Origin: Candidatus Micrarchaeota archaeon
GTDB taxonomy: Archaea > Iainarchaeota > Iainarchaeia > JAADDC01
Reading direction: 5' to 3'
Assembly (NCBI GenBank): GCA_027046625.1
Contig: JALTXX010000011.1
Coordinates: forward strand, 1 to 18,424
Length of the DNA: 18,424 bases
Within the stretch, counting starts at the first letter, position 1; the number at the start of each line of letters is the position of its first letter. Below, piece by piece: positions 166 to 17,543 of this stretch. Made by a program: the position numbers and the translations under genes. The notes beneath the pieces were generated by a model that was not told the origin of the DNA, searched no databases, and saw nothing but the letters and a program-made list of their open reading frames with translations.

Positions 166-1800
166 CTAACCCCATACCCTATAAACATGAGGAGATGAGT
201 AGTGGCGTAGAATATACTTCAACGTCCGTTCATCCACAAGGCAGCCCACCTTCAACACATAAACATATTCTACATCACCTTTCTTCTCCCTTATAACTAC
301 ACGTTCCAACAGAAATGGGGGTTTCTTTCTTTTATCCCTTGTTTTAAGCTCTATCTTTACATTTCCCCCTTCAAACAGCTCTGGGTATCGTTCTTCAAGG
401 AGGGGTAATACATCTGTTCTAAGATAGGATCTCCCCCTTTCTGTAAACACCACCACAATATCACCACTTTCACAAAGCATCCTGATATGCTTTTTTACAG
501 AGGCCATTGGCAGTCCTGCCAGCTTTGCTATCCATTCCTCTGGCATAGGCTCCTCCAACAACTTCAGTATCTTCCCCCTCCATCCAAGTCGCATATACTT
601 TTCTACCACTGCTTCCAACACCCCTATATCTACTCCTACCTGCTTGGCCGAGAATAGACTCTCCACAAAGAAATCCATATCTATTGTATCTGGTGTTACT
701 ATGAACGCAACCACCTTTGGTATCCTTCCTACCGGTCTTAGAACCCTTCCTCTTCGCTGTATAAATCTCAGAGGAGATGGGGTATTGCTCCATACTATTA
801 GGAGATCTGCAGTAGGCAGATCTACACCCTCCTCCCCTGCAGAGGTAGATACAACTATGCTGGCATTTTTTGCTTCTTCTAGCTCTTTCCTCTTCTCTTT
901 CAGCGATTTCCTTCCTGTTATAAGCGCTGCGTCTAGTTTATCTGCTATCCTTTTGGCTACTACTACCCTATCCACAAAGATAATAGCCTTTGAGTACTCA
1001 TGCTCCTCTAAAATACTCTTTAACGTGTTCCACTTGTGCAGATCCTCCAACGATAGAATATCATCCCCTAGGGAGGATAGAAGGCTTGCCAGCTTTGTCT
1101 TCCTCGATATACTCTCTTTCAAGGCAAGGGCGCCATCTCGTGAAAGATATGTCAGAGCTAACCTATACAACATCCTCTCCTTTCCATCACATCGAGTAAA
1201 CAATTCCTCTATCTTGTTGTATACCTCCCTCTCCTTTTCTCCCAAGGGGGATTCGTACACTTCCGCCACCCATTCTGCAATATAAGGCCTTATGAGAGGA
1301 TCATCATATGACCATTGTATGATGGGGCCTATAAGGGAAGTTATAGTCTTTTTGTGTCGGGATGGAATATGTGCTGATAGACCAAGCCTATACTCTGCCC
1401 TCAAACTTTCTAGCAATTTCTTTAACGGATCGTTACCTATTGCATGGTGGCATTCATCCACTATCACAACATCTGTATCTCCTAACCTCAAGGAAAGGGC
1501 GGATTCCGGAGTTGTTATGATCACCTGCCTTTGAAGGGAGGGCCGTTCCCTCATTAAGCCATGGTAAGCCTCCACACTTAAGGAGGAGTAAGCCTTGTAG
1601 AACTGATAGGTCTGCTCCACCAGCAATCTAGTAGGTTCTAATACAAGTATTTTTCTTCCTTCCTTTGCCAACCTTTCTGCATACATAATACCTATTAGTG
1701 TTTTTCCTGTACCAGTTGGAAGCACAAGTACTACTCTCTTTCTCTTTAGCGCTTCCTCTACTGCTATCTGCTGATACTTTCTTGGTATTAGCTTAGAGAT
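166..1800 (-). CDS. SF2 (Hef/ERCC4-related) DEAD/DEAH-box helicase with C-terminal winged-helix-like region and no nuclease domain
   Basis: Q motif PRKYQ, Walker A LPTGTGKT, motif Ia EPTRLLVEQ, DECHH, motif V STSAGEEGVDLP, motif VI QRRGRVLR. The C-terminus (KILKLL..EEWIAKLAGLPMASVKKHIRMLCESGDI) looks like a wHTH. The start is uncertain: the ORF track gives ATG 1911, but ATC 1800 follows a strong SD (see findings). Confidence 0.85.
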   Translation of the reverse strand: MSKLIPRKYQQIAVEEALKRKRVVLVLPTGTGKTLIGIMYAERLAKEGRKILVLEPTRLLVEQTYQFYKAYSSLSVEAYHGLMRERPSLQRQVIITTPESALSLRLGDTDVVIVDECHHAIGNDPLKKLLESLRAEYRLGLSAHIPSRHKKTITSLIGPIIQWSYDDPLIRPYIAEWVAEVYESPLGEKEREVYNKIEELFTRCDGKERMLYRLALTYLSRDGALALKESISRKTKLASLLSSLGDDILSLEDLHKWNTLKSILEEHEYSKAIIFVDRVVVAKRIADKLDAALITGRKSLKEKRKELEEAKNASIVVSTSAGEEGVDLPTADLLIVWSNTPSPLRFIQRRGRVLRPVGRIPKVVAFIVTPDTIDMDFFVESLFSAKQVGVDIGVLEAVVEKYMRLGWRGKILKLLEEPMPEEWIAKLAGLPMASVKKHIRMLCESGDIVVVFTERGRSYLRTDVLPLLEERYPELFEGGNVKIELKTRDKRKKPPFLLERVVIREKKGDVEYVYVLKVGCLVDERTLKYILRHYSSPHVYRVWG

Positions 1801-4039: not shown

Positions 4040-5908
4040 ATGAGATTTCAAGCATCTGTAGAGTTCCTTGTGCTAGGGCTTGGAGCATTGCTGCTCACCC
4101 TCAGCGTGGGGACCACTCTGGTGGATTCCTTACAGACACTGTCTGCGGAAGTGAAGGAAACACCTCAAGGAAAGAAAGTAGTATATCCTTCCGAGGTGTT
4201 AAAGAAGAATCCTTCCATTTCAAGGATGGAGGTAACTCCACTCTCTCCCTATGATGATGAACGTGTCACTTTTTTCTGCGAAGGCCCGGAGATGAGACGC
4301 GTTTCTCTCTACCTAAACAATTCTTTAATTAAGAGTTGTAACAGCTCTTCCTGCTCCGCTCAAAAAGATAACCTCACTCCTGGGGATTACACGTTTACAT
4401 GCAGAGTGTGGGATGAGAAGGGAAATAGCGAGGATGCATCCATCAGATTCTCCGTTACAAGAAGACCGGACACCGTTCCCCCTGTTATTACAGGGCTTAC
4501 CATTTCAGGCTACCAGAACAATGTAACCATTTCTTGCCACGCAACGGATGACAGGGGATTGAAGTATGTAGCCATCTTCTTGGATAACAGCAAAATAAAA
4601 GAATGTACCGGAGGAACGGTAGACAATCCAAAAACCGTAGTAGAATGTACCGTTAGCAAAACTCTCTCCAAAGGAAGTTATAATATTGAGTGTGAGGCTG
4701 TGGACATGGCCAACCAGATAAATCCTGACTATCCTCCAAACATTACTAGAAGAGGGCAGAGAATAACCATACCCTTCGAGCCCCCAAAGAAGTCAAACAC
4801 ACCCGAGGTGACTGCCACCAAGGGCAGTGTAACTCTTAGCTTGAGGATTACGCCCATTGAGGGAGCATACATTGATAAAGACGTTATTAGAATTGGATGT
4901 GCAGCCACCTCAGAGGATCCAGGTGAGAAGATACGGTACATGACCATAACTGACTACAGCTACAGAAAGGGGATAAACAGAGTGCTCCAAAGCTGGAGTG
5001 GAAGTAGTACCTCCCAGTACATATCATATGCGGGAACATTTACAGTTCCGTGGTACCATAAAATAAGATGTGTAGCACTCACTTCACGGGGTAATTACTT
5101 GGTGGCGGAACAGACTATTCATGTATATGGTAGGGAGCCAAAGATAACTCTAACGAGCAAAAGAAACGGGTCTTCACCAGGCTGGAGGGGCAGAGCCAAT
5201 GAAACTACCTTTAGCATAACATGCAAGGTGAATGATCCGGCAGGCATAAGACGTGCATATCTGAAGGTTGGGGGCAGAACTATAGACGAGATAAGAAACG
5301 ATGAGTGTGACTATGAAAAACTATCTCCCGAAGGCATTACCCAATGTCCCACAGAGAAAACATTTACCTATAGTGGAACATTTTCCTCCGACAGAAGGGT
5401 AGAGTGTGTAGCTATAGATGTATACGGCAAGAAAAGCATAGTCAGCAACACGGTAGATGTATGTACAGACACCTGTAGATATTACAGTATTGGGTATGAA
5501 AAATGTGCCAGTACTACAAGGATAAACAGATGTGAATGGGAATGGGGAGGCGTGAAACCCTCAGAGCCAGAACAGTTTAATTGCAAAGTATGGAGGCCTT
5601 TCAAGAGTTGTGATGCAGAAACTGCTAAAGTTCTGGATTCCTGCAGCGGTACCGCTAACGAATGTGTGAATATGAACTTTACAACATGGACATGCAAAAA
5701 GAGAGAATGTGTAAGATACAAAGAAACGCTATACGAGTACGAGGGCCAGAGATGTGTGGATAATGATGGAGACGCAGACTGTAAACCTTATACATATTAC
5801 AAAACAACGACTTGCTACTCCAAACACTTCTTGGGATCAGGATACTGTGAGAGAACAACGTACTATTATAGACCTTGGAATAAACCTTCTTGCAGCTACA
5901 GCTGTTAG
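4040..5908 (+). CDS. Surface protein with class III-like signal peptide, about 4 Ig-like repeats and a Cys-rich C-terminal region
   Basis: N-terminus MRF-QASVEF (E at +5) plus a hydrophobic helix. Four repeats follow the pattern xCxAxD..(G)xYxxxCxAxDxxG. The last ~150 aa contain 16 Cys. Confidence 0.8.
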   Translation: MRFQASVEFLVLGLGALLLTLSVGTTLVDSLQTLSAEVKETPQGKKVVYPSEVLKKNPSISRMEVTPLSPYDDERVTFFCEGPEMRRVSLYLNNSLIKSCNSSSCSAQKDNLTPGDYTFTCRVWDEKGNSEDASIRFSVTRRPDTVPPVITGLTISGYQNNVTISCHATDDRGLKYVAIFLDNSKIKECTGGTVDNPKTVVECTVSKTLSKGSYNIECEAVDMANQINPDYPPNITRRGQRITIPFEPPKKSNTPEVTATKGSVTLSLRITPIEGAYIDKDVIRIGCAATSEDPGEKIRYMTITDYSYRKGINRVLQSWSGSSTSQYISYAGTFTVPWYHKIRCVALTSRGNYLVAEQTIHVYGREPKITLTSKRNGSSPGWRGRANETTFSITCKVNDPAGIRRAYLKVGGRTIDEIRNDECDYEKLSPEGITQCPTEKTFTYSGTFSSDRRVECVAIDVYGKKSIVSNTVDVCTDTCRYYSIGYEKCASTTRINRCEWEWGGVKPSEPEQFNCKVWRPFKSCDAETAKVLDSCSGTANECVNMNFTTWTCKKRECVRYKETLYEYEGQRCVDNDGDADCKPYTYYKTTTCYSKHFLGSGYCERTTYYYRPWNKPSCSYSC

Positions 5909-7188: not shown

Positions 7189-7777
7189 AGTTGATAGCAT
7201 CATCGTACATACTTCTTGTATTAAAGAATAGGAAGCCCCTTTCTCCCCTTGTTCTTTCCCTTATAATATCAAGATTTGCCTGTCTACCATGCACGCGGAA
7301 ATACTGAATGGGTTGGTCTATTACCTCCCTCTGGGGATCCGTCACCCACACCCCAACATCAATGGGTTTCCAGCCTCTTAACTCAAGGGCAGCCCTTACA
7401 CCTAGGGTAGAAACATAGTCTTTTACCAGCTGTTCGTGCTTCGATGTTTGGACAAAGCTCTTTGGCGTCTGGATAAGGAGCCACTCGCTCCGTAAGGTTT
7501 TCATAATGCTTAGTATGTGCTCTGTTACATCGTCCACATTCTTGAAAAACCTCACATGGGTAACCTCCCTATTATGTTTTACTGTAAACTCAAAGGTTTC
7601 CGGAACATTTCTCCTCCACCGTTTCACAATGTTTAGATTAGGCAAGGAATAGAATGTGCTATTAACCTCCACCACAGGGAATAGTTCAGCATAGGCCTTT
7701 AGTTTATCTCCCTTTAACCCGTATTTCCAAGGTTTAAAATACCCCCATCCACAAGTACCTACCTTTAGCTCCTCCAC
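7166..7777 (-). CDS. DUF72 (YecE-like) family protein
   Basis: GTCGWGY, YAELFPVVEVNSTFY, FEFTVK, QTP, YFRVHGR and FFN match the family pattern. The GTG start overlaps the upstream gene by 13 nt. Confidence 0.88.
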   Translation of the reverse strand: MEELKVGTCGWGYFKPWKYGLKGDKLKAYAELFPVVEVNSTFYSLPNLNIVKRWRRNVPETFEFTVKHNREVTHVRFFKNVDDVTEHILSIMKTLRSEWLLIQTPKSFVQTSKHEQLVKDYVSTLGVRAALELRGWKPIDVGVWVTDPQREVIDQPIQYFRVHGRQANLDIIRERTRGERGFLFFNTRSMYDDAINFMKKTNL

Positions 7778-8994
7778 ACAGGTATAACCTCGTACACCTT
7801 TATGTTCCTAACTCTTATAGTGGCAGGACGCGGAAAGGTTGTGATACCTAGCTTGAAGTTTATATCTGCGTCCAATATATCTGGTCTTGCTAGGGAAGCG
7901 CAGAACAACGTTCCACTATTAGTTAGCGGACCACAGTTACCTATTAAACCAGATATCACAGCACCGCTGTAATATGTTATACCTGTACTAGGGTACGAAT
8001 CACCATTGAATTCCAAGAGGTAGAGTAGGTACATGGGGTTTGCTATGTTAGGGTCTTCTACAGGGATGCTATTTAAATACCCATTAGTATTTAGCTCTGC
8101 TACAATCCATCCATTGGATTCGTAGAGGTTTGCATCATAGGGAGTAAAATAAGAACTATTTGAATCAAAATCAATGATCAATCTCTTTATCTTCCAGAAA
8201 AACATCGGATATATCCTAAACTCATCAAAGGCGGCATATGCTGTATTTCCATCGGTGCTCCAGCCGGCATTTAGACATATCTGAACATCTGAGGCGGAGG
8301 GAAGCTGAAAGGATGAAGCTTCTAACAACCACCCATGAGCGGCTGGAGGTGCTACAGAATACTTATCCCTTATTTGTGAAATTTGTTTTGACCCCACTGG
8401 GTTTATTGGGATATGCGTCTCTATCATGTTTTCCTTCTTTATATAGGCAGCCATAATGTAATTTCCTTCCGGGAGATGAAACACTTTACATATCCAGCTC
8501 CAACCCACTGTTGTCTTGTTTGTCTCTATGCAGAAGGCATTTCCTTCCACCCCCTCACAGAGGTAGAAGGTGTAGCCTGCAGCGGGAGTATCCCATCCGT
8601 TGTTTCTGTCGAGGGTTTCCCTTATGATAGGAGTAGGACAGGTAGGTTTCACAACAGCGGTACCTCCCGAAGAAACAACCTTTACGCTGTCTATCTGCTC
8701 ACAAAAGAGAGGCGAGAGAAGATAGTAGGTACACCTCTCCCCATCGCACTCGCTATACACATTAAGGGGTTCTTTGTTGTTTATAAAGAAATGGGGATTT
8801 GATAGCTGGTTTGTGCGAAGGAGGATCCAGTTAGGAGGTATAAACCCGGACTGATAAACAATGATGGGTTTTATGGTGGTCCTTTCGAGATCGGCAGAGG
8901 TAGATTCCATGGATGACATCGTGACATTGTAGAGAAGTGTGGAGGATGCTACCACAATAGCCAAGAGAAGGAGTGTTCCCACGATGGAATTCAT
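7765..8994 (-). CDS. Pilin/archaellin-like N-terminus plus beta-sandwich (CBM-like) extracellular domains
   Basis: MNSIVGTLLLLAIVVAS matches the mature archaeal pilin N-terminal helix. The centre (HLPEGNYIMAAYIKKE..AYAAFDEFRIY) resembles galactose-binding-like/CBM jelly-roll modules; that fold call is tentative. Confidence 0.65.
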   Translation of the reverse strand: MNSIVGTLLLLAIVVASSTLLYNVTMSSMESTSADLERTTIKPIIVYQSGFIPPNWILLRTNQLSNPHFFINNKEPLNVYSECDGERCTYYLLSPLFCEQIDSVKVVSSGGTAVVKPTCPTPIIRETLDRNNGWDTPAAGYTFYLCEGVEGNAFCIETNKTTVGWSWICKVFHLPEGNYIMAAYIKKENMIETHIPINPVGSKQISQIRDKYSVAPPAAHGWLLEASSFQLPSASDVQICLNAGWSTDGNTAYAAFDEFRIYPMFFWKIKRLIIDFDSNSSYFTPYDANLYESNGWIVAELNTNGYLNSIPVEDPNIANPMYLLYLLEFNGDSYPSTGITYYSGAVISGLIGNCGPLTNSGTLFCASLARPDILDADINFKLGITTFPRPATIRVRNIKVYEVIPVWRS

Positions 8995-9436: not shown

Positions 9437-10132
9437 ATGAGCAGGGAAAAGGAACTTAAACTGCTAAGGGAGGGAAAAATAAAATCTTTCAACGTTCTCG
9501 AGCCATATGGAATACGTATCCCCAATAAACTTACAGAACTATACCCTCATATAAGTCCGGAGGTGTTCTTTAGGACCTATAAAGAAATGTTTGGAGAGTT
9601 TCCCCGTGAAGAGGAGCTATTTAGGTATATAGGCTTCCTTTTACCCCTAAAAATGAAAATCCACGAGGGTGTTTTCTATCACTATGATGAGAGAACTCAT
9701 ACCCTCTACATACCAAAGACAAGAGCAGAGGAGTTGTACAAAAAGGCAAGAAGACAGCTCATGCTAAGAAGAAGGGTTAGAGATGCGAGAGACTTCCTGT
9801 ATATTATGTGGTCCAGAACTCCGCTTGTTTCAGCCCCACTATCGCTAGTGTTGAATAAGTACGGTAATCCTATACATGGATTGGTTGCAGCCGCAAGTGC
9901 CATTGCCACCACCACATACCAGATATACAGGTATGCTAAACATGGAGAGCTTCCAATCAAAACTGACATAGATGAAGCCATCAAGATCATAAAAGAAAGA
10001 CACAAAAGGGAGGAAGAGTATCTTAGAGAAGCTGGTCTTACTATAAAAGCCTTGTTGGATGCCCTAAGGGATGATCATGTAAGAAGAGGGATAGAGAGAG
10101 CTGCAAAAGGAGTGTTGGATAATTATACATAA
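9437..10132 (+). CDS. Hypothetical protein with a central moderately hydrophobic segment
   Basis: 231-aa ORF with typical codon usage. No family motif recognised. Confidence 0.75.
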   Translation: MSREKELKLLREGKIKSFNVLEPYGIRIPNKLTELYPHISPEVFFRTYKEMFGEFPREEELFRYIGFLLPLKMKIHEGVFYHYDERTHTLYIPKTRAEELYKKARRQLMLRRRVRDARDFLYIMWSRTPLVSAPLSLVLNKYGNPIHGLVAAASAIATTTYQIYRYAKHGELPIKTDIDEAIKIIKERHKREEEYLREAGLTIKALLDALRDDHVRRGIERAAKGVLDNYT

Positions 10133-10143
10133 CGGCCCCTGAC

Positions 10144-10158
10144 CGAAAAGTATTTATT
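10144..10158 (+). promoter_or_regulatory. BRE-TATA of the lectin pilin gene
   Basis: CGAAAAG-TATTTATT ends 21 nt before ATG 10180. Confidence 0.65.
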
Positions 10159-10163
10159 CATCG

Positions 10164-10172
10164 TTTTTTTTT
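10164..10172 (+). terminator. Oligo-T tract, possible archaeal terminator of the 9437..10132 gene
   Basis: T9 run about 30 nt after the stop codon. It lies inside the next promoter region. Confidence 0.35.
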
Positions 10173-10179
10173 CGTTAGG

Positions 10180-11031
10180 ATGAGAGGAGTTTCACCCATC
10201 GTGGCAACAATACTCATCATCCTCCTAGTGGTAGCCATAGGTATCATACTTTACTCTTCACTCACCAACTATGTAAGCGTTTCTACCTCTACTCTTGGGA
10301 GAACATCCATGATTACATTTACCATAGATGCGTCCACATATGCGATTGAAGCGCCCGGCGCTATGGCTTACTATATGCACTACTATATTCCCATTGATAA
10401 TCCTATGACATGGGAGGAGGCCTTTAACTATTGTAAGGAAAGAGGCTTCCACCTCCTAACACCGGATGAGAGCGGAGATGTAAAAGCTGCTCTTTCTGAT
10501 AAGATGAAGGAGCTGGGATGGACATATGCGTGGATAGGATTGTATCAAGAGGCTGGAGCTGCTGAGCCAGACGATGGATGGAACTTCGTTACAGGTTCTC
10601 CCATTACACTTTCGTTCTGGAAGAGTGGAGAGCCAAATGGAGGGACTGCGCAGAACGTGGCAGCTGTGGATGAAAATGGAGAATGGGTGGATCTAAACTA
10701 TGATATGAATCTACCCTTCTTCTGTGAAACATCTGCTCTACAGTTTACCTTCAACAACAAACACTCAGCCAACTTAAACCTTGAACTGTTCATCGTTAGG
10801 TCAGAAAGGTTTAGCATGAATCTAAGAGATGCTCATAGATTTAGTGTAAACCTTGGAGGTGTGGAGAAAACCTTTGAACAGCCATACGTGTGGTGCAATC
10901 GGTACGTTATCCCAGCAGGAGGTAGTGCCACATGTCGTATCATAGATACAAATCCAAACTTCAGAACATCACCATCCACTATATGTTTATCAGGCTATGG
11001 AGCAACTATATGTGACAGCGTGTATAGATGA
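10180..11031 (+). CDS. Archaeal type IV pilin with an inserted C-type lectin domain
   Basis: Class III signal MRG/VSPIVATILIILLVVAIG. CTLD motifs TWEEAFNYC..GFHL, AWIGL, W..G, WKSGEPNG, WVD and FFCE (about 10390-10728). The chain then resumes pilin-like beta strands (FTFNNKHSANL..IPAGGSAT). Confidence 0.85.
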   Translation: MRGVSPIVATILIILLVVAIGIILYSSLTNYVSVSTSTLGRTSMITFTIDASTYAIEAPGAMAYYMHYYIPIDNPMTWEEAFNYCKERGFHLLTPDESGDVKAALSDKMKELGWTYAWIGLYQEAGAAEPDDGWNFVTGSPITLSFWKSGEPNGGTAQNVAAVDENGEWVDLNYDMNLPFFCETSALQFTFNNKHSANLNLELFIVRSERFSMNLRDAHRFSVNLGGVEKTFEQPYVWCNRYVIPAGGSATCRIIDTNPNFRTSPSTICLSGYGATICDSVYR

Positions 11032-11036
11032 CGATT

Positions 11037-13556
11037 CTATCCTATGTAGCTTGATTCTTCCCTCTTAACCTTTCTTCTCATGCGTTTCATCTGGTTGTAA
11101 AACTCTTCATACCATTTAACTGTCTCGCTGTCAAGGGATGGCCTCACTTCCTTTAGTGCTTCTTCAAAGTGCTTCATCTTCACCTTTGTGGGTTTCATGC
11201 CGCTCTCTTCCAATGCCTTAAAAACTGCCTCTCTTACAAGGGCTGCAAGGTCTGCGCCACTATAATTCTCTGTTAGCTCTGATAGTTTATCTAGATCCAC
11301 TCTCTCGGTGGGAACATTCCTTAAATGTACCCTTAGGATGCTCTTACGTGCCTCTTTGTCAGGAGGAGGAACGTAAATAATCCTGTCAAATCTTCCCGGC
11401 CTAAGAAGGGAGGGATCTATAATATCAGGTCTGTTGGTGGCAGCTATCACTACTACATCCTTCAGCTCTGCAATACCGTCCATCTCTGTAAGTAATTGGT
11501 TTACAATCCTGTCTGTTACATGGGAGTCTGGGAACAAACCTCTTATGGGGGCGATGGCATCTATTTCGTCGATGAAGATAATGGTGGGAGCGCTCTGTCT
11601 GGCCTTTTGAAATACCTCCCTTATGGCTCTTTCGCTCTCACCCACCCACTTAGAGAGTATCTCGGGTCCCTTTATGGCAATGAAGTTCGCTTCACTCTCT
11701 GTTGCTACTGCCTTGGCGAGGAGGGTCTTGCCTGTGCCAGGAGGTCCATAGAGCAAAATACCCTTGGGGGGTTCTATGCCCATGGATTGGAAAACATCAC
11801 GGTGTTTGAGGGGGTACTCCACCACTTCCCTTAGCTTCTTCTTAACAGTGTCCAGTCCTCCTATATCCTCCCATTTTATGTTAGGTACCTCTATGAAAAC
11901 CTCTCTTAACGCAGAGGGTCTTACCTCCTTTAATGCTTCTTCAAAATCCTCCCTCTTTACCACAAGCTCTTCCAATACCTCTTCAGGTACGTCCTTATCT
12001 AGATCTATCTTGGGAAGGACCCTCCTTAATGCCTTCATAGCTGCCTCCTTCACAAGGGCTGCAAGATCAGCCCCCACAAACCCGTGAGTTCTCTCCGCTA
12101 TCTCCCATAGGATATGGTTTCTAAGGTAGGTCTCCACCCTTTCCTTTACTACATAGGGAGACTCCTCAATAACCTTCTTAGCTTCGGAAATGTTTTTCAC
12201 CTTTGAGAGGCGCTTCTTTAGCTCTTTTAATGCCTCGAAGTAGGATATCTCCCTTTCCAGAACCTCACCCACCTTTTCTTCTGACTCCTTGGACAATTTT
12301 TCCTTCATTTCACCAGATAGCTCCTCTATGGCGGATGAAACTGATTCCCCTTTCTTTATCTTATTTAGAGCTTTCTCTGCTCTTTCCATTTCATCCACAA
12401 GGGACTCAACTACCTTCTTTACCCTCTCAAGAGAATCATAAACATCTAGAGGAACGTGTCTTGTATGAATTTGGAGTATCTCAAAACGGCCCCGCTTATC
12501 TGGAACGGGAAGCTCTATCTCCCTGTCAAATCTCCCCGGTCTCCTTAGAGCCGGATCTATGGCATTGGGTCTGTTGGTAGCTGCTATTACTATTACATCT
12601 CCTCTAGCTTCTAATCCATCCATAAGGGTTAGAAGCTGGGCAACCACCCTCCTTTCTACCTCACCTATCACCTCTTCCCTTTTGGGGGCAATGGCATCTA
12701 TTTCGTCGATGAAGATAATGGTGGGGGCGTTCCTTCTTGCTTCCTCAAAGATCTTCCTCAGTTTTTCCTCTGCCTCACCCACAAACTTGCTCATGATTTC
12801 CGGTCCGTTTAGGGCTATAAAGTGCGCGTTTGCCTCTGTTGCTACTGCCTTGGCTAGGAGGGTCTTGCCTGTGCCGGGAGGTCCATAGAGCAAAATACCC
12901 TTGGGGGGTTCTATGCCCAACTTCCTAAACAACTCTGGTTTTCTGAGAGGCAGTTCTATCATCTCCCTTACCTTTTGAATCTGATCGGACAACCCTCCTA
13001 TATCCTCATAGGAGATGGTAGAGGTGGAAAGGACGCCCGTCATCTCCTCTCTGATGATAATCTGGGTATCCGTTGTTACCCTTACTATACCATTGGGGTT
13101 TGTAGAAACAACGGCATACAGATTCTTCCTAAAGATGGGTATGACTAACTTGTCTCCCCTTACAAGGGGCCTCCCTATGAGAAACTTCAACACATAGTGT
13201 TCATATCCCTTTAGAATGACGGCATCCTCGGAGGCGGGGGCTAACACGATTTGCTTTGCAGGTTCCCACTTTGCGGGCCTCACAATCACTTCATCTCCTA
13301 TGGAAACGCCTGCGTTTTCCCTGGTGGTTCTATCCATTCTTATGATTCTTTCCCCTATATCAGAGGTGGGAGCTGGCCATGCAATGGCTGCTGTTTTCTT
13401 GCTTCCCTCTATCTCTATAATGTCCCCATACACTATACCCAGTTCCTTCTTTGTTTGCAAATCTATAGCCACAATTCCCCTGTTTACATGGGAGGGAAGT
13501 GCATCTGCAACCCTCAGCTTTACAGCTTTTTCACCCACGCTAACATAACACCTCAT
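11037..13556 (-). CDS. cdc48: Cdc48/VAT/p97-family AAA+ ATPase with a ~110-aa helical insertion in D1
   Basis: N domain ([14 protein letters not shown]) and two AAA modules, each with [25 protein letters not shown] and RPGRFDR. The C-terminus ends in an HbYX-like ..SYIG. Confidence 0.96.
11697..12919 (+). repeat. Intragenic direct repeat in cdc48: 11697-11782 vs 12834-12919 (84/86 nt); second pair 11546-11592 vs 12683-12729 (45/47 nt)
   Basis: Manual alignment. Both pairs are offset by 1137 nt and cover the Walker A and Walker B regions of D2 and D1. Confidence 0.9.
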
Positions 13557-14302: not shown

Positions 14303-15956
14303 GCCATACCACTTCTTTTATGCGCTGACTATTGGAGAGTATGATATCCACATATTCCTTCAGAATTTTTCTTGTCTCCTTTAGTACATCCTCCCTCCTC
14401 CTCTTTCCTCTCTCTATCAGGTCCATCTCCCTCTCAAGGTTCGCCGTTATTTCTGGAGAAAGGAGGTAAGGTATCAGCGCATTTAAGATATTATATAGGT
14501 TTTCTCCAAGTTTGGTGGGCTTTATACGTTTTCTTCCCTCAATGTAGCCCCTTTTGTAAAGTTTAGATATAATATCCTGCCTCGTGGACTTCGTTCCAAG
14601 TCCAAGCCTTTCCATTTCCTTAACGAGATCCCCCGGGGAGTATCTCGGCGGAGGGGTTGTCTTGGAAGTAGAAAGTGCCTTTTCTCTTATGGCAACTTCT
14701 CCCGTTAGCTCTGGTACCCTTTGAAGCTCTATCCTTCTAGGGTATATTTTCGTCCATCCCCTATCTAATACGATGCCTCCAGATACCCTAATCTCTATCC
14801 CCCCGGAGGAAAGAATGGCTTCTCTTCTCTCTACAATCCCATCTCTATAGAAGGTGGCCAGAAACCTCCTTGCTATAAGGTCATACACTCTTAGAAGATC
14901 ATCCTTTAGATTTGTGGGAGGTTTTACAGGGTATATGGGAGGGTGGTCTTCTGTTTTCCTTCCCTTGGAGGGTTGGTATATCTCTTCGATGCCATAAAGG
15001 GTTTTCAGCATGCTTGCGTAGCGTTTTGCCTCTGGAGGATAGGTTTGATTATCAGTCCTAGGATAGGTGATGTATCCCATCATGTAAAGTTCTTCCGCCA
15101 GTGCCATAGCCTTTGAGGGTGAGAGGCCTAGTAATCTATTTGCCTCGGATAGAAAAGTGGTTGTATCGAAGGGTTTCGGACGAGGTATAGATTCTTTTTT
15201 CTTATTAAATGATACAACCTTCGCCCTGTTAGTTATAGAGTGTAGCCAAAGCTCTGCCTCTTCTTTTTTCTTCGTTCTCTCCGTTGTACCCACAAAACCT
15301 CCGTCAAACGTAACCTTAACGTAGTAGAATGTCTCTGGCTTAAAAGAGCGTATCTGGAGCTCCCTTTCCACTACTAATGCAAGCGTAGGTGTTTGAACCC
15401 TACCTATAGAAAGGAAGTCTCTACCTCTCCTGTTAGAAACCAGAGAAATAGCCCTTGTAAGGGTGGCACCCCATAGAAGATCCACATCCCTTCTAGCAAA
15501 GGCTGCTTCTGCAAGATTTTCCCTTGGTTTCCCTAGGTTGGAGAATGCTCTTTCAAGTTCTTCCTTGGAAAGAGAGGAGAACCATGCCCTGTAGGCAGGA
15601 ATGTTTTTGTATATCTTCTTTACAACTTCCAAGCCTATAGCCTCTCCTTCTCTATCTGCATCTGTCGCTATAATAACAAGAGATGGCTTCAACCCCCTCA
15701 AAACACTATATATATCCCATCTTACAATTTTTTCCCTTATAGGGGCCTCTATAAGCTCATAGAGGTGTTTTAGACTCCACCTTCCAAACTCCTCTGGAAA
15801 ATCCACATCTATGATATGACCCGATAGAGGCACCACCACGGTATCGTTATATCTGAAAACTGGTACCCTTCCCCTTCTTTCCATGGATGCGGAGGGGAAA
15901 AGCTGAGATACAAGGGTCTTTGCTGCAAGAGGCTTTTCCATAAGAATGAGCCTCAT
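14172..15956 (-). CDS. topA: Type IA DNA topoisomerase without Zn ribbons, with a basic C-terminal tail
   Basis: Toprim EKP and ATDADREGE, GRVQTPTL, catalytic GYITYPRTD, HPPIYP and GLGTKSTR. Confidence 0.95.
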   Translation of the reverse strand: MRLILMEKPLAAKTLVSQLFPSASMERRGRVPVFRYNDTVVVPLSGHIIDVDFPEEFGRWSLKHLYELIEAPIREKIVRWDIYSVLRGLKPSLVIIATDADREGEAIGLEVVKKIYKNIPAYRAWFSSLSKEELERAFSNLGKPRENLAEAAFARRDVDLLWGATLTRAISLVSNRRGRDFLSIGRVQTPTLALVVERELQIRSFKPETFYYVKVTFDGGFVGTTERTKKKEEAELWLHSITNRAKVVSFNKKKESIPRPKPFDTTTFLSEANRLLGLSPSKAMALAEELYMMGYITYPRTDNQTYPPEAKRYASMLKTLYGIEEIYQPSKGRKTEDHPPIYPVKPPTNLKDDLLRVYDLIARRFLATFYRDGIVERREAILSSGGIEIRVSGGIVLDRGWTKIYPRRIELQRVPELTGEVAIREKALSTSKTTPPPRYSPGDLVKEMERLGLGTKSTRQDIISKLYKRGYIEGRKRIKPTKLGENLYNILNALIPYLLSPEITANLEREMDLIERGKRRREDVLKETRKILKEYVDIILSNSQRIKEVVWHDIRDEDSAGQKKKPVGKRSRASRTFKTFKGKKASSRRKNKEL

Positions 15957-16429
15957 CCAAGCACCCTCTGGCCTATTTTTAGAGGTATCACAAAGGGTTT
16001 TTCGTATTCTTCCAAAGAGATATAGGTTTTTACATCTGCCACTCCATCTATTTTGCCTAATTCATCCAGAAATCTTCTAACTTCTTCTATGTCCTCTCCC
16101 ACACCCTTTATGAGGATGGGATAATCCCCCACCAGCTGGTGTATCTCAAGTATGTGGGGAAGCTCTTGAAGTCTCCTCATAACACGCTGTATATCAGATA
16201 CGTCTACCCTCAAGAGGGCAAAGTAGGTGTACTTGAAACCTACTCGCTTTTTATCTACAATTGCACTGATCCTCTTTATTATTCCCTTTGAAATCAACTT
16301 ATCTACTCGCTTTTTAACCGCTACATCCGACAACTTTGTTTCTTTTGCTATGTAGGAGAAAGGTATTCTTCCATCCTGCACAAGTATCTTAAGTATCTTC
16401 CTATCTACAGGATCTAACTCCCCTTCCAC
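15953..16429 (-). CDS. Lrp/AsnC-family transcriptional regulator
   Basis: LDPVDRKILKILVQDGRIPFSYIAKETKLSDVAVKKRVDKL..GII HTH plus a RAM domain (GDYP). Start moved to GTG 16429, 24 nt from the TATA box. ATGA overlap with topA. Confidence 0.92.
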   Translation of the reverse strand: MEGELDPVDRKILKILVQDGRIPFSYIAKETKLSDVAVKKRVDKLISKGIIKRISAIVDKKRVGFKYTYFALLRVDVSDIQRVMRRLQELPHILEIHQLVGDYPILIKGVGEDIEEVRRFLDELGKIDGVADVKTYISLEEYEKPFVIPLKIGQRVLG

Positions 16430-16453
16430 GGTTAGTATAGTTAACCAGTACCC

Positions 16454-16460
16454 TTTATAT
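16454..16460. promoter_or_regulatory. Central TATA box shared by the lrp operon and the ATP-cone gene
   Basis: TTTATAT lies exactly 24 nt from GTG 16429 (minus) and 24 nt from GTG 16485 (plus). Confidence 0.65.
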
Positions 16461-16484
16461 TGTTGGCTATTCTTAACTAAAGCT

Positions 16485-17543
16485 GTGAACAAAAACCTTC
16501 TCATCTATAGACTTACAGAGCTGGGTCTCTCACCCCTCGAGGTGGTAGAGGTTTTGGAGGAATTGGGAGAAGAATGGACAGAAGATGATGTGTATAACGT
16601 TCTAAAACATGTAAACAGAGAAGCAGCGGAGGAATTTCGAAAAGGAATGAGATTATCTGTATGGAGATCGGATCTTAGAAAGGAGGGATTCAATAGAAAG
16701 AGAATTGTGGATTCTCTTGTGAGGGAAACCAACATACCCCGCTCTGTGGCAGAAAAGATTGCAAAGGAAGTAGAGGACAGAATACGCTCCTCCAATTTCA
16801 CCTTTCTTACAAGCTCCCTCATCAGGGAGATGGTACTCATAAAGCTGTTAGAGTACGGAAAGGAGGATGCATACAGAAGATATGCAAGGCTTGGAATACC
16901 AGTATACGATCTTTCTACTATGGAAGGCAACCCAAGGGATGAGATCGTTAAAAGGATTCTTACACAGTATTCCATCGTCTACATTCTTCCTGATACCCTC
17001 AGAAACGCCCTTTTCGAGGGTTATATAGATATAGGGGGCATAGCAAATCCTTTTGTACACTACGGACTGGCGTACCACTCAAGGGTATCGCAGAAGGAGA
17101 GGTGGCTTACTGGCTTGTTCCAATACCTTGGTGAAAGGAACTTTGTATCAGAACCATCTATCTATATACCCCCTTTTGAAGGAATAGAGGAGATGGTAGA
17201 ACCTCTAAAGAGGGGCTACAAGGCAATACTATGGTCAGATGAAAATATTGAAGGTGTTATAAGGTCTGAGGATCCGGTATTCTCCTTCGGAAGGGTGCCA
17301 GAGAGAAAGGTACTAGACGTGGTGTATATAGATATAGAAAAGATGAGGCTAAACCTTGGAGATGCAAAGATGGAACACTACATGGATGACATCCTAAACG
17401 GACTGGAGGAATACCAGGAAAGGAGGAGGAAACTAGTTAAAGGAGGTAATATATACATAAAACTCAACGGAGACTATCCTATTTACAGATTTAGGGTGAT
17501 AAATGACGAAGAGCTAGCGGATAGCGAGAAAGATAGTAGATAA
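16485..17543 (+). CDS. ATP-cone protein resembling the N-terminal part of archaeal class III ribonucleotide reductase (NrdD); truncated and Cys-free
   Basis: VWRSD...FNRKRIVDSLVRET...AEKIAKEVE...LTSSLIREMV..KLLEYG...YARLGIPVYD and QYSIVYILP..LRNALFEGYIDI follow the archaeal NrdD N-terminal pattern. The protein is only 352 aa, has no Cys and has no RxxGY glycyl-radical motif. Confidence 0.7.
   Translation: MNKNLLIYRLTELGLSPLEVVEVLEELGEEWTEDDVYNVLKHVNREAAEEFRKGMRLSVWRSDLRKEGFNRKRIVDSLVRETNIPRSVAEKIAKEVEDRIRSSNFTFLTSSLIREMVLIKLLEYGKEDAYRRYARLGIPVYDLSTMEGNPRDEIVKRILTQYSIVYILPDTLRNALFEGYIDIGGIANPFVHYGLAYHSRVSQKERWLTGLFQYLGERNFVSEPSIYIPPFEGIEEMVEPLKRGYKAILWSDENIEGVIRSEDPVFSFGRVPERKVLDVVYIDIEKMRLNLGDAKMEHYMDDILNGLEEYQERRRKLVKGGNIYIKLNGDYPIYRFRVINDEELADSEKDSR

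Follow-up and report, generated by a model that had tools for sequence, protein, structure and literature searches.

The window analysed here is the whole 18,424-nucleotide (nt) stretch of contig JALTXX010000011.1 (GenBank assembly GCA_027046625.1, Candidatus Micrarchaeota archaeon). The genome that holds it amounts to 652,019 bases in 18 contigs (94% complete, 0.5% contamination), and the sequencing runs that contain the window DNA are labelled hydrothermal vent metagenome, with no RNA run among those listed. Near the middle of the window lies an open reading frame (ORF) for a protein of 283 amino acids (aa), here called a lectin-pilin, in which a class III signal peptide and a pilin-type helix are followed by a C-type lectin-like domain (CTLD) and a C-terminal beta-sandwich. 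The gene belongs to a family that shares one promoter block, and probably encodes a pilin-like surface adhesin subunit. Its features are as follows.

10180..11031, plus strand: lectin-pilin ORF, 283 aa, ATG start, unbroken frame
10180..10188, plus strand: predicted class III signal peptide Met-Arg-Gly (TIGR02537 match, with Arg at -2 and Gly at -1)
10189..10290, plus strand: hydrophobic N-terminal alpha-helix, the pilin H-domain, residues 4-37 (helix 6-37 in the model)
10291..10332, plus strand: linker, residues 38-51, lowest in both model confidence and conservation
10333..10737, plus strand: CTLD, long-form-like, residues ~52-186 (Lectin_C match and predicted fold)
10432-10434 and 10723-10725, plus strand: cysteine pair of the outer disulfide, C85 and C182 (from the sequence and the family alignment)
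10630-10638 ('gagccaaat'), plus strand: EPN, E151-P152-N153
10651-10653, plus strand: Gln158
10684-10692, plus strand: WVD, residues 169-171
Residues 83-85, 118-121 and 180-183, plus strand: NYC, WIGL and FFCE (180-183), in that order
10738..11028, plus strand: C-terminal beta-sandwich, residues 187-283, nine strands in the model, possible pilin body
11029..11031, plus strand: stop codon TGA, 5 nt from the end of the convergent gene for a CDC48-type AAA ATPase

The lectin domain and the N-terminus

Residues 75-184 match Pfam Lectin_C (PF00059) with an E value of 4.6e-8 and 34.2 bits, against a gathering score of 22.6, and the match spans profile positions 2-107 of 107. When a profile of the 12 full-length paralogs described below was compared with PDB sequences, 120 distinct matches were obtained at E<=0.01, and all 60 of the matches listed are proteins with C-type lectin domains, collectin-11 ranking first (E 2.6e-12) and then DC-SIGN, the mannose receptor, SP-D and MBP-A. 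An AlphaFold model, made from an alignment of 27 rows (the 12 paralogs, eight lectin proteins from metagenomes and seven relatives encoded in other genomes), has a mean predicted local distance difference test score (pLDDT) of 89.0 and a predicted template modelling score (pTM) of 0.79. It contains a helix at 6-37, a weak linker, strands and helices in lectin-typical order to residue 185, and nine strands over 187-281; in this prediction the CTLD fold is complete. The model replaced one made from the 12 paralogs only (pLDDT 55.5), for which Foldseek matches had root-mean-square deviations mostly of 13-20 A. Among the structural neighbours are CTLDs with non-sugar ligands according to their titles: lithostathine, ovocleidin-17, natural killer (NK) receptors and tetranectin.

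C85 and C182 are kept without exception in the 16 family members (16/16). Where the inner disulfide would be, the window copy has V160 and about Y175, and a cysteine is found at either position in none of the 12 own paralogs. After WIGL the domain has a lengthened YQ..G..EP..GW segment, which is also found in several two-cysteine metagenomic CTLDs, e.g. P0075, P0107, P0118 and P0159.

The leader reads M-R-G followed by VSPIVATILIILLVVAIGIILY, with a charged residue at -2, Gly at -1 and then an unbroken hydrophobic H-domain. The rule for PibD/FlaK substrates, as given in the accessible text of PMC4371748, is a charged residue at -2 and Gly, Ala or Ser at -1. Residues 2-28 pass the NCBIfam model TIGR02537 (archaellin/type IV pilin N-terminal domain) with 21.8 bits, the cut-off being 20, and a cut by prepilin peptidase is predicted after Gly3.

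These results bear out much of an earlier note that had been made from the letters of the window. It had placed the ORF and the motifs WIGL, EPN, WVD, NYC and FFCE where they are found here, and had described a canonical archaeal class III signal peptide, a complete-looking CTLD, and an outer cysteine pair that is kept while both inner-disulfide positions are replaced.

Parts of a type IV filament machinery are encoded elsewhere in the same genome. Seven T2SSE ATPases and eight T2SSF platform-protein matches exceed the cut-offs, and there are two Peptidase_A24 prepilin peptidases and an STT3/AglB homologue. There is also a short pilin.

C4:12522-12959, plus strand: short classical pilin, 145 aa, starting MRGISPIV like the lectin-pilins

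The continuation of its helix differs from that of the lectin-pilins, and it lacks their promoter block. Since its first residues are the same, co-assembly with the lectin-pilins is possible, and it could be the major subunit of a filament that takes them up.

Domain order and the C-terminal domain

The linker region is poorly modelled and variable: the block 31-40 has a mean pLDDT of 55, and the mean pairwise identity over the wider region 31-64 is 32%. In 36 of the 50 rows listed by the VIA structure search, the CTLD superposition begins no later than model residue 55, and its end falls at 184-192 in most rows. The early start of these superpositions puts the strand at 47-53 at the start of a long-form-like lectin domain. 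The corresponding region of the relative P0035 contains a pair of cysteines with the spacing seen in long-form lectin domains. The gap between helix and lectin in the model is residues 38-51 only, and the beta-sandwich starts within two residues of the last lectin strand. Since the two ends of a C-type lectin domain adjoin each other, the domain behaves as an excursion where helix and C-terminal domain meet. The model supports an internal lectin domain, between the pilin helix and the beta-sandwich, and not one inside a split pilin body. The earlier proposal that the lectin had been inserted into the pilin rather than appended can be kept in part: the domain is internal (helix, CTLD, beta domain), but a place within the pilin globular domain is not supported, as most of the listed superpositions start by residue 55.

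The C-terminal domain has four invariant cysteines (C239, C252, C269 and C278). The six invariant cysteines of the family are an extracellular hallmark, and were counted in favour of a surface adhesin. The sandwich is modelled with an average pLDDT of 90-97 in the 10-residue blocks from 181 to 250 and of 77-91 in later blocks. A hidden Markov model (HMM) of this domain matched the 12 paralogs alone in the own genome at E<0.001, and its profile found nothing among PDB sequences at E<=10. The list returned by the VIA search was filled by matches to the lectin domain. With residues 186-283 as query, the ESM Atlas gave sub-threshold leads, namely an archaeal cluster (0.87, the best), Ig-like proteins (0.84) and archaeal flagellin (0.76). 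The sandwich was also compared by hhalign with the bodies of 14 short pilins (141-165 aa, from the own genome and relatives). The match is weak (probability 32%, P 4.8e-4, 49 columns), and the aligned part is formed by the 'x-F-x-V-x-N-x-S' opening strands common to the sandwich and the short-pilin bodies. It is plausible that the sandwich is the pilin body.

The Ca2+/sugar site

The binding site was read from the alignment of the family to lectins of known structure. In mannose-binding protein, Ca2+ site 2 is formed by five positions, which also bind the hydroxyls of the sugar: two in E/Q-P-N/D, a Glu further downstream, and both Asn and Asp of WND. The corresponding residues of the window copy are E151, N153, Q158 (for Glu), V170 (for the WND Asn) and D171. 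The exchange of Glu for Gln158 is conservative, and the WND Asn is lost to Val170.

Both motifs vary within the genome. The tripeptide is QPD in three of the 12 own copies, KPD, EPT and QPS in two each (2/12), and EPS and QPE in one each (1/12); EPN occurs in the window copy only (1/12). At the WND position, LHD is the most frequent (4/12), followed by WND (3/12) and WDD (2/12), with single copies having WVD (the window copy), LDD or VHD. Only P152 and D171 are invariant among the site residues of the 12 copies. A full EPN/Glu/WND set is present in the relatives P0035 and P0154, and a full QPD/Glu/WND set in the relative P0040 and in the own copy C9:9183-10055. These complete canonical sets suggest that the Ca2+/sugar site is probably ancestral and has since been remodelled in most copies, including the window copy. 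Given Gln158 and Val170, canonical mannose-type Ca2+-dependent binding is unlikely for the window copy, and weak or non-canonical sugar binding, or a ligand that is not of the mannose type, is to be expected from its residues. The inference from EPN to mannose or GlcNAc is weakened for the window copy, whose Ca2+ site 2 is left incomplete by Q158 and V170.

A paralog family with a common promoter block

Lectin_C was found at 12 places in the own genome, 10 of them over the cut-off, and phmmer recovered 12 full-length paralogs of 283-297 aa on eight contigs. A 13th copy is represented by its 5' end at the edge of contig C1, where it is cut by the contig end. Together the family genes occupy 10,488 of the 652,019 bases (1.6% of the genome). 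In 10 of the 12 copies there is an N-x-S sequon at the invariant N193, a further extracellular hallmark. Upstream of the window copy, the following elements were identified.

10123..10179, plus strand: promoter block of about 57 nt, common to 13 copies (upstream alignment and genome-wide motif search)
10123-10132, plus strand: TTAT-AC-ATAA inverted repeat (TTAT/ATAA) that opens the upstream element TTATACATAAC..., about 20 nt upstream of the TATA box
10151-10158, plus strand: TATA of a GAAAAG-TATTTATT element resembling a transcription factor B recognition element (BRE) and TATA box, first base at -29
10164-10172, plus strand: T9 run, between the TATA box and the start codon
Directly before the ATG, plus strand: CGTTAGG, end of the promoter block

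The genome-wide motif search found the block, which is near-identical in the 13 copies, nowhere beyond these family genes. The TTAT/ATAA repeat is kept in all 12 copies with assembled upstream DNA (the C12 copy is cut by the contig end), and is a possible site for a common regulator. Across the copies, the TATA-like octamer starts 25-29 nt before the start codon; in a further 425 long ORFs of the genome, TATA-like hexamers are most frequent at -32 to -27. Since this spacing corresponds to the modal leaderless position of the genome, the family transcripts are probably leaderless. The T run is T9 in five copies, T8 in five, T7 in two and T6 in one. Phase variation by means of this run was considered, and the case for it is weak, the TATA box lying in the modal window for 12 of the 13 copies (T7-T9, -29 to -27). 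In two vent-metagenome runs the promoter is a collapsed repeat, in which a one-base indel at 10164 is indistinguishable from differences between paralogs.

Conservation is uneven along the protein. When the 12 paralogs are compared in pairs, their identity averages 76.7% for residues 1-30, 32% for the linker, 59% for the lectin core, 41% for the lectin loop region and 36% for the C-terminal domain. For five pairs, synonymous divergence (dS) in codons 2-30 is 0.24-0.78; elsewhere in the gene, two of the five pairs are saturated and a further two have mostly higher values. The closest pair has a dS of 0.19 in the lectin domain, 0.46 in the C-terminal domain and 1.07 in the linker, and for most copies the nearest neighbour changes from region to region. 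The low dS at the 5' end, its mosaic distribution and the shifting neighbours suggest that the 5' end has undergone gene conversion and that the copies are to some extent mosaic.

On contigs C9 and C16, NTP_transf_2/HEPN and ParE genes lie in among the family copies.

C16:58361-59064: NTP_transf_2 and HEPN pair (E 1e-12 and 1e-30), between paralogs
C9:10098-10836: look-alike NTP_transf_2/HEPN pair, between paralogs
C9:11759-12076: ParE toxin gene (E 9.5e-9), between paralogs

These toxin-antitoxin-type genes lie directly between paralogs, and the family seems to occupy plastic, duplicated blocks.

Distribution and relatives

A single-sequence search of 5.8 billion clustered proteins returned paralogs from the own genome only. 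The relatives P0017, P0032, P0040, P0154 and P0155 were added by a search with a 16-row profile, and P0035, which is on a separate metagenome contig of 1.9 kb, by an exhaustive search of 1.84 billion representatives. Full-length members were sought in the 215 genomes of the class, which is the whole phylum in this survey. They are present in the own genome and in one of the five other genomes of the same genus (G004, 83% complete), which has at least 4 copies. Absence from the other genomes of the genus is weak evidence, as these are 78-83% complete and in 80-130 contigs. Among the 215 genomes, Lectin_C itself occurs in four, all of one order and G015 among them; it was found in 0 of 14 control genomes. 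A scan of genome contigs with the family alignment gave an N-terminal look-alike in one Micrarchaeota metagenome-assembled genome and nothing else. In metagenome contigs the family alignment found no relative, and P0035 found its own 1.9-kb contig only. No archaeal pilin with a C-type lectin domain was found in full-text searches of the literature, though supplementary listings (e.g. the 264 architectures in Dataset S1 of PMC8179133) could include one.

Several of the related genes have features of their own. Upstream, the G004 lectin-pilins L033, L034 and L036 have a block in common that contains an (AG)6-7 repeat together with a TATA-like box, TAAATAAT(T)TTT, and there is no in-frame ATG, GTG or TTG before their conserved RGVSPIV. 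In the proteins called from them (P0017, P0155 and P0040), the starts chosen by the gene caller are GTG or TTG codons inside the helix. Two relatives are larger. In L037 (G004:C14), which is pilin-like, the lectin is preceded by an additional beta domain and a spacer rich in Gly, Ser and Thr, and the frame runs to the contig end. L038 (G015:C49), which belongs to another family in the same order, has three lectin domains and a hydrophobic segment at its N-terminus, in a frame that stays open for >1,000 codons.

Kinship of the lectin domain was assessed with 148 non-family proteins from the search of representatives, their single domains being scored by a lectin-only HMM. The top 50 domains have a mean of 2.3 cysteines per domain, and the inner-disulfide pattern, defined by a crude regular expression, is present in one of the 50; lower-ranked domains average 4 or more cysteines. 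The nearest relatives are two-cysteine CTLDs rather than animal lectins, so that a missing inner disulfide is the norm among them. Bacterial-type domains (Dockerin_1, Flg_new, Flg_new_2, Big_13/Big_7 and NADase_transloc) were found above the cut-off in five of 13 scanned non-family proteins. Hence the lectin domain should not be called eukaryote-style, as it had been, when the best-scoring domains outside the family are two-cysteine CTLDs and some are on proteins with bacterial-type domains. A bacterial source for it is a lead and not a result.

Other genes in the window

The remaining features of the window are listed below.

4040-5908, plus strand: 622-aa ORF with an N-terminal hydrophobic segment and Big_7/Y_Y_Y-type Ig-like domains
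7765-8994, minus strand: 409-aa ORF whose hydrophobic N-terminus resembles that of a pilin (MNSIVGTLLLLAIVVASS...), situated 1.2 kb upstream of the lectin-pilin gene
11037-13556, minus strand: CDC48-type AAA ATPase gene, convergent with the lectin-pilin gene
15953-16504, minus strand: AsnC/Lrp-type regulator gene
16485-17543, plus strand: ATP-cone protein ORF, listed from a GTG start

The 622-aa ORF probably encodes a further surface protein. The 409-aa ORF has a weak TIGR02537 match (E 0.064) and matches no Pfam family; a 298-aa paralog is found on contig C5, and fragments at the start of C9. The ATP-cone ORF and the AsnC-type regulator gene are divergent and overlap by 20 nt, and the real start of the former may be further downstream than the listed GTG.

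Interpretation

With a probability of roughly 0.6, the gene encodes a pilin-like surface adhesin subunit, and a repertoire of such subunits is the likeliest function of the family. A leaderless mRNA would be translated into the pre-protein, either of the two A24 prepilin peptidases would cleave this after Gly3, and the helix would hold the processed protein in the membrane. A type IV filament machinery of the genome would then move it into a pilus or a short pilus-like stalk, from which the lectin head would face outward. The common helix would let any copy enter the same filament, and the differing heads would form a hard-wired set of ligand specificities with which this small-genome vent archaeon could attach to a surface or a partner cell, most likely by way of glycans.

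Several results weigh against this interpretation. The lectin-pilin matches none of the Pfam pilin families, even at E<=10, and the NCBIfam model for UpsA matches residues 1-37 alone with 24.5 bits. As the cut-off is 130, the protein is not a UpsA. The sandwich shows weak profile similarity to short-pilin bodies. Pilus machinery is found beside none of the 12 family genes (0/12), whose neighbours are housekeeping genes or toxin-antitoxin pairs. The window copy in particular is the most divergent (33-38% identity to the other copies), is the sole copy without any N-x-S/T sequon and has only three of the five canonical Ca2+/sugar ligands. Diversifying selection gives no signal, all region-wise ratios of non-synonymous to synonymous divergence (dN/dS) being <1 with most synonymous distances saturated, and no host is known.

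A more specific proposal is that the 13 genes are a germ-line repertoire of swappable lectin heads on one stalk and one promoter, used as a host-recognition system in which new specificities arise by recombination between copies. It would be a hard-wired counterpart of the retroelement-diversified CLec proteins of other DPANN archaea. Recombination between copies would account for the mosaic synonymous divergence, the nearest neighbours that differ from domain to domain and the homogenised 5' ends, and the choice of the displayed head might be set via the common upstream element, possibly via the T6-T9 run. We regard the whole of this proposal as tentative, with the odds against it. Selection of host cells by an episymbiont, a possibility which the earlier note had raised, fits the genome size.

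Other explanations were considered for the stalk and for the head. The protein could be a cell-surface lectin that takes no part in a long pilus, with the class III signal peptide serving for anchoring or, in the manner of the Sulfolobus bindosome, for a short structure resembling a pseudopilus. Its length of 283 aa is roughly double that of the short pilins of the genome and its relatives (141-165 aa), and the genes lie away from the machinery. However, the helix is strongly conserved in the 12 complete copies, as it is in the polymerising Haloferax PilA1-6, and the short pilin at C4:12522-12959 with the same MRGISPIV offers a possible partner for co-assembly, which makes a location outside a long pilus rather unlikely. 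As to the head, the presence of EPN could be taken to mean that the window copy is a canonical Ca2+-dependent lectin of the mannose/GlcNAc/glucose type. E151-P152-N153 and D171 are in place in a complete CTLD fold, Gln158 could still give a carbonyl oxygen to Ca2+, and the relatives P0035 and P0154 retain the full EPN/Glu/WND set. We consider a canonical lectin improbable because Val170 for the WND Asn and Gln158 for Glu alter two of the five site residues, and P152 and D171 are the only site residues that the 12 copies have in common. The heads might instead bind something other than sugars, e.g. a partner-cell protein or a mineral surface, like many CTLDs without a Ca2+ site. The degenerate motif of most copies (KPD, EPT, EPS, QPS or QPE, and LHD/VHD for WND) would suit such ligands, as would structural neighbours such as lithostathine, ovocleidin-17, NK receptors and tetranectin. 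However, structural rank is blind to ligand type, sugar-binding CTLDs scoring equally well, and at least four family members keep the complete canonical site, so that non-sugar ligands also appear doubtful.

A different origin for the variation between heads was rejected. Targets with the CLec fold are known for the diversity-generating retroelements (DGRs) of Nanoarchaeota and Nanohaloarchaeota, according to the accessible text of PMC5006420 and PMC7443923, and the lectin-pilin might have been a variable protein of that kind, like the CLec proteins of other DPANN. However, no match to the reverse transcriptase family RVT_1 was found in the 94%-complete genome, and the differences between copies are spread over the whole gene, with synonymous sites mostly saturated. 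The domain is of the PF00059 type, whereas the Nanohalobium DGR proteins are described in PMC7443923, as far as its text is accessible, as falling within the subclass of the formylglycine-generating enzyme. A DGR variable protein is therefore scarcely credible here.

For the means by which symbiotic archaea of very small size recognise a host and hold on to it, ConA/LamG-type surface proteins and retroelement-diversified proteins are the candidates named so far in the accessible literature. The lectin-pilins combine a readable, well-understood binding fold with a pilin-type assembly signal, in about 13 differing copies. They constitute a natural series of expressible binding-site variants for comparison (EPN, QPD, KPD, EPT and others) and a testable candidate for how such vent archaea grip a partner. 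They also place PF00059-type lectin domains in one order of an archaeal phylum in which these are otherwise rare (4/215 genomes).

Comparison with known systems

The papers cited in this section are compared as far as their accessible text allows. Among the closest known lectins in the PDB are collectin-11, DC-SIGN, langerin and SRCL (4yli, 1k9i, 3p7f and 2ox8); in contrast to these, the lectin-pilin has no inner disulfide and an incomplete Ca2+ site 2. Unlike other Lectin_C carbohydrate-recognition domains, its lectin domain is embedded in a pilin-like protein.

Among archaeal pilins, PilA1-PilA6 of Haloferax volcanii are six dispersed pilins with one common H-domain, which is needed for assembly, and each can form pili (PMC4371748). 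The lectin-pilin genes are likewise several and away from the biosynthesis genes, whereas the PilA proteins are small and without a lectin domain, and were compared here by their N-terminal motif only. UpsA of the UV-inducible pili of Sulfolobus reads the S-layer N-glycans of other cells and sets partner specificity (PMC7064770). Recognition by UpsA is via a short variable stretch of the pilin body, and by a lectin-pilin it would be via the lectin domain. The bindosome of Sulfolobus solfataricus consists of sugar-binding proteins bearing signal peptides of class III that are processed by prepilin peptidase and are far larger than pilins (PMC4371748, PMC3047682). However, these are substrate-binding proteins of ABC transporters and function in uptake, and no linkage to a transporter was seen at the lectin-pilin gene.

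In other symbionts, lectin-like minor pilins have been proposed for host binding by Saccharibacteria (PMC11623550), and ConA/LamG-type lectin-like surface proteins are reported for cultivated DPANN (bioRxiv 10.1101/2023.10.27.564410, PMC7443923). Those described in these texts have L-type, PLL-type or ConA/LamG folds, and none is a C-type lectin pilin family.

The nearest parallel in design is found in the modular type IV pilins of bacteria, some of which carry lectin modules. Examples are PilC (lectin) and PilB (vWA) of Streptococcus sanguinis, and carbohydrate-binding modules are among the commonest (PMC8179133, PMC9934059). As in the lectin-pilins, these proteins unite a class III signal peptide and pilin helix with a ligand-binding module, through which the filament becomes adhesive. 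However, the bacterial module is grafted after a complete pilin module, whereas here it lies between the helix and the beta-sandwich. The modules named in these papers are ConA-like, PA14 and similar ones, with C-type lectins not among them. In addition, the bacterial proteins are single minor pilins modelled at the tip, whereas here an archaeon has about 13 copies. The survey of modular pilins was a search for the N-terminal motif IPR012902, and was reported for monoderm and diderm bacteria (PMC8179133, PMC9934059). The lectin-pilins extend the idea of the modular pilin from bacteria to archaea, with a different domain order.

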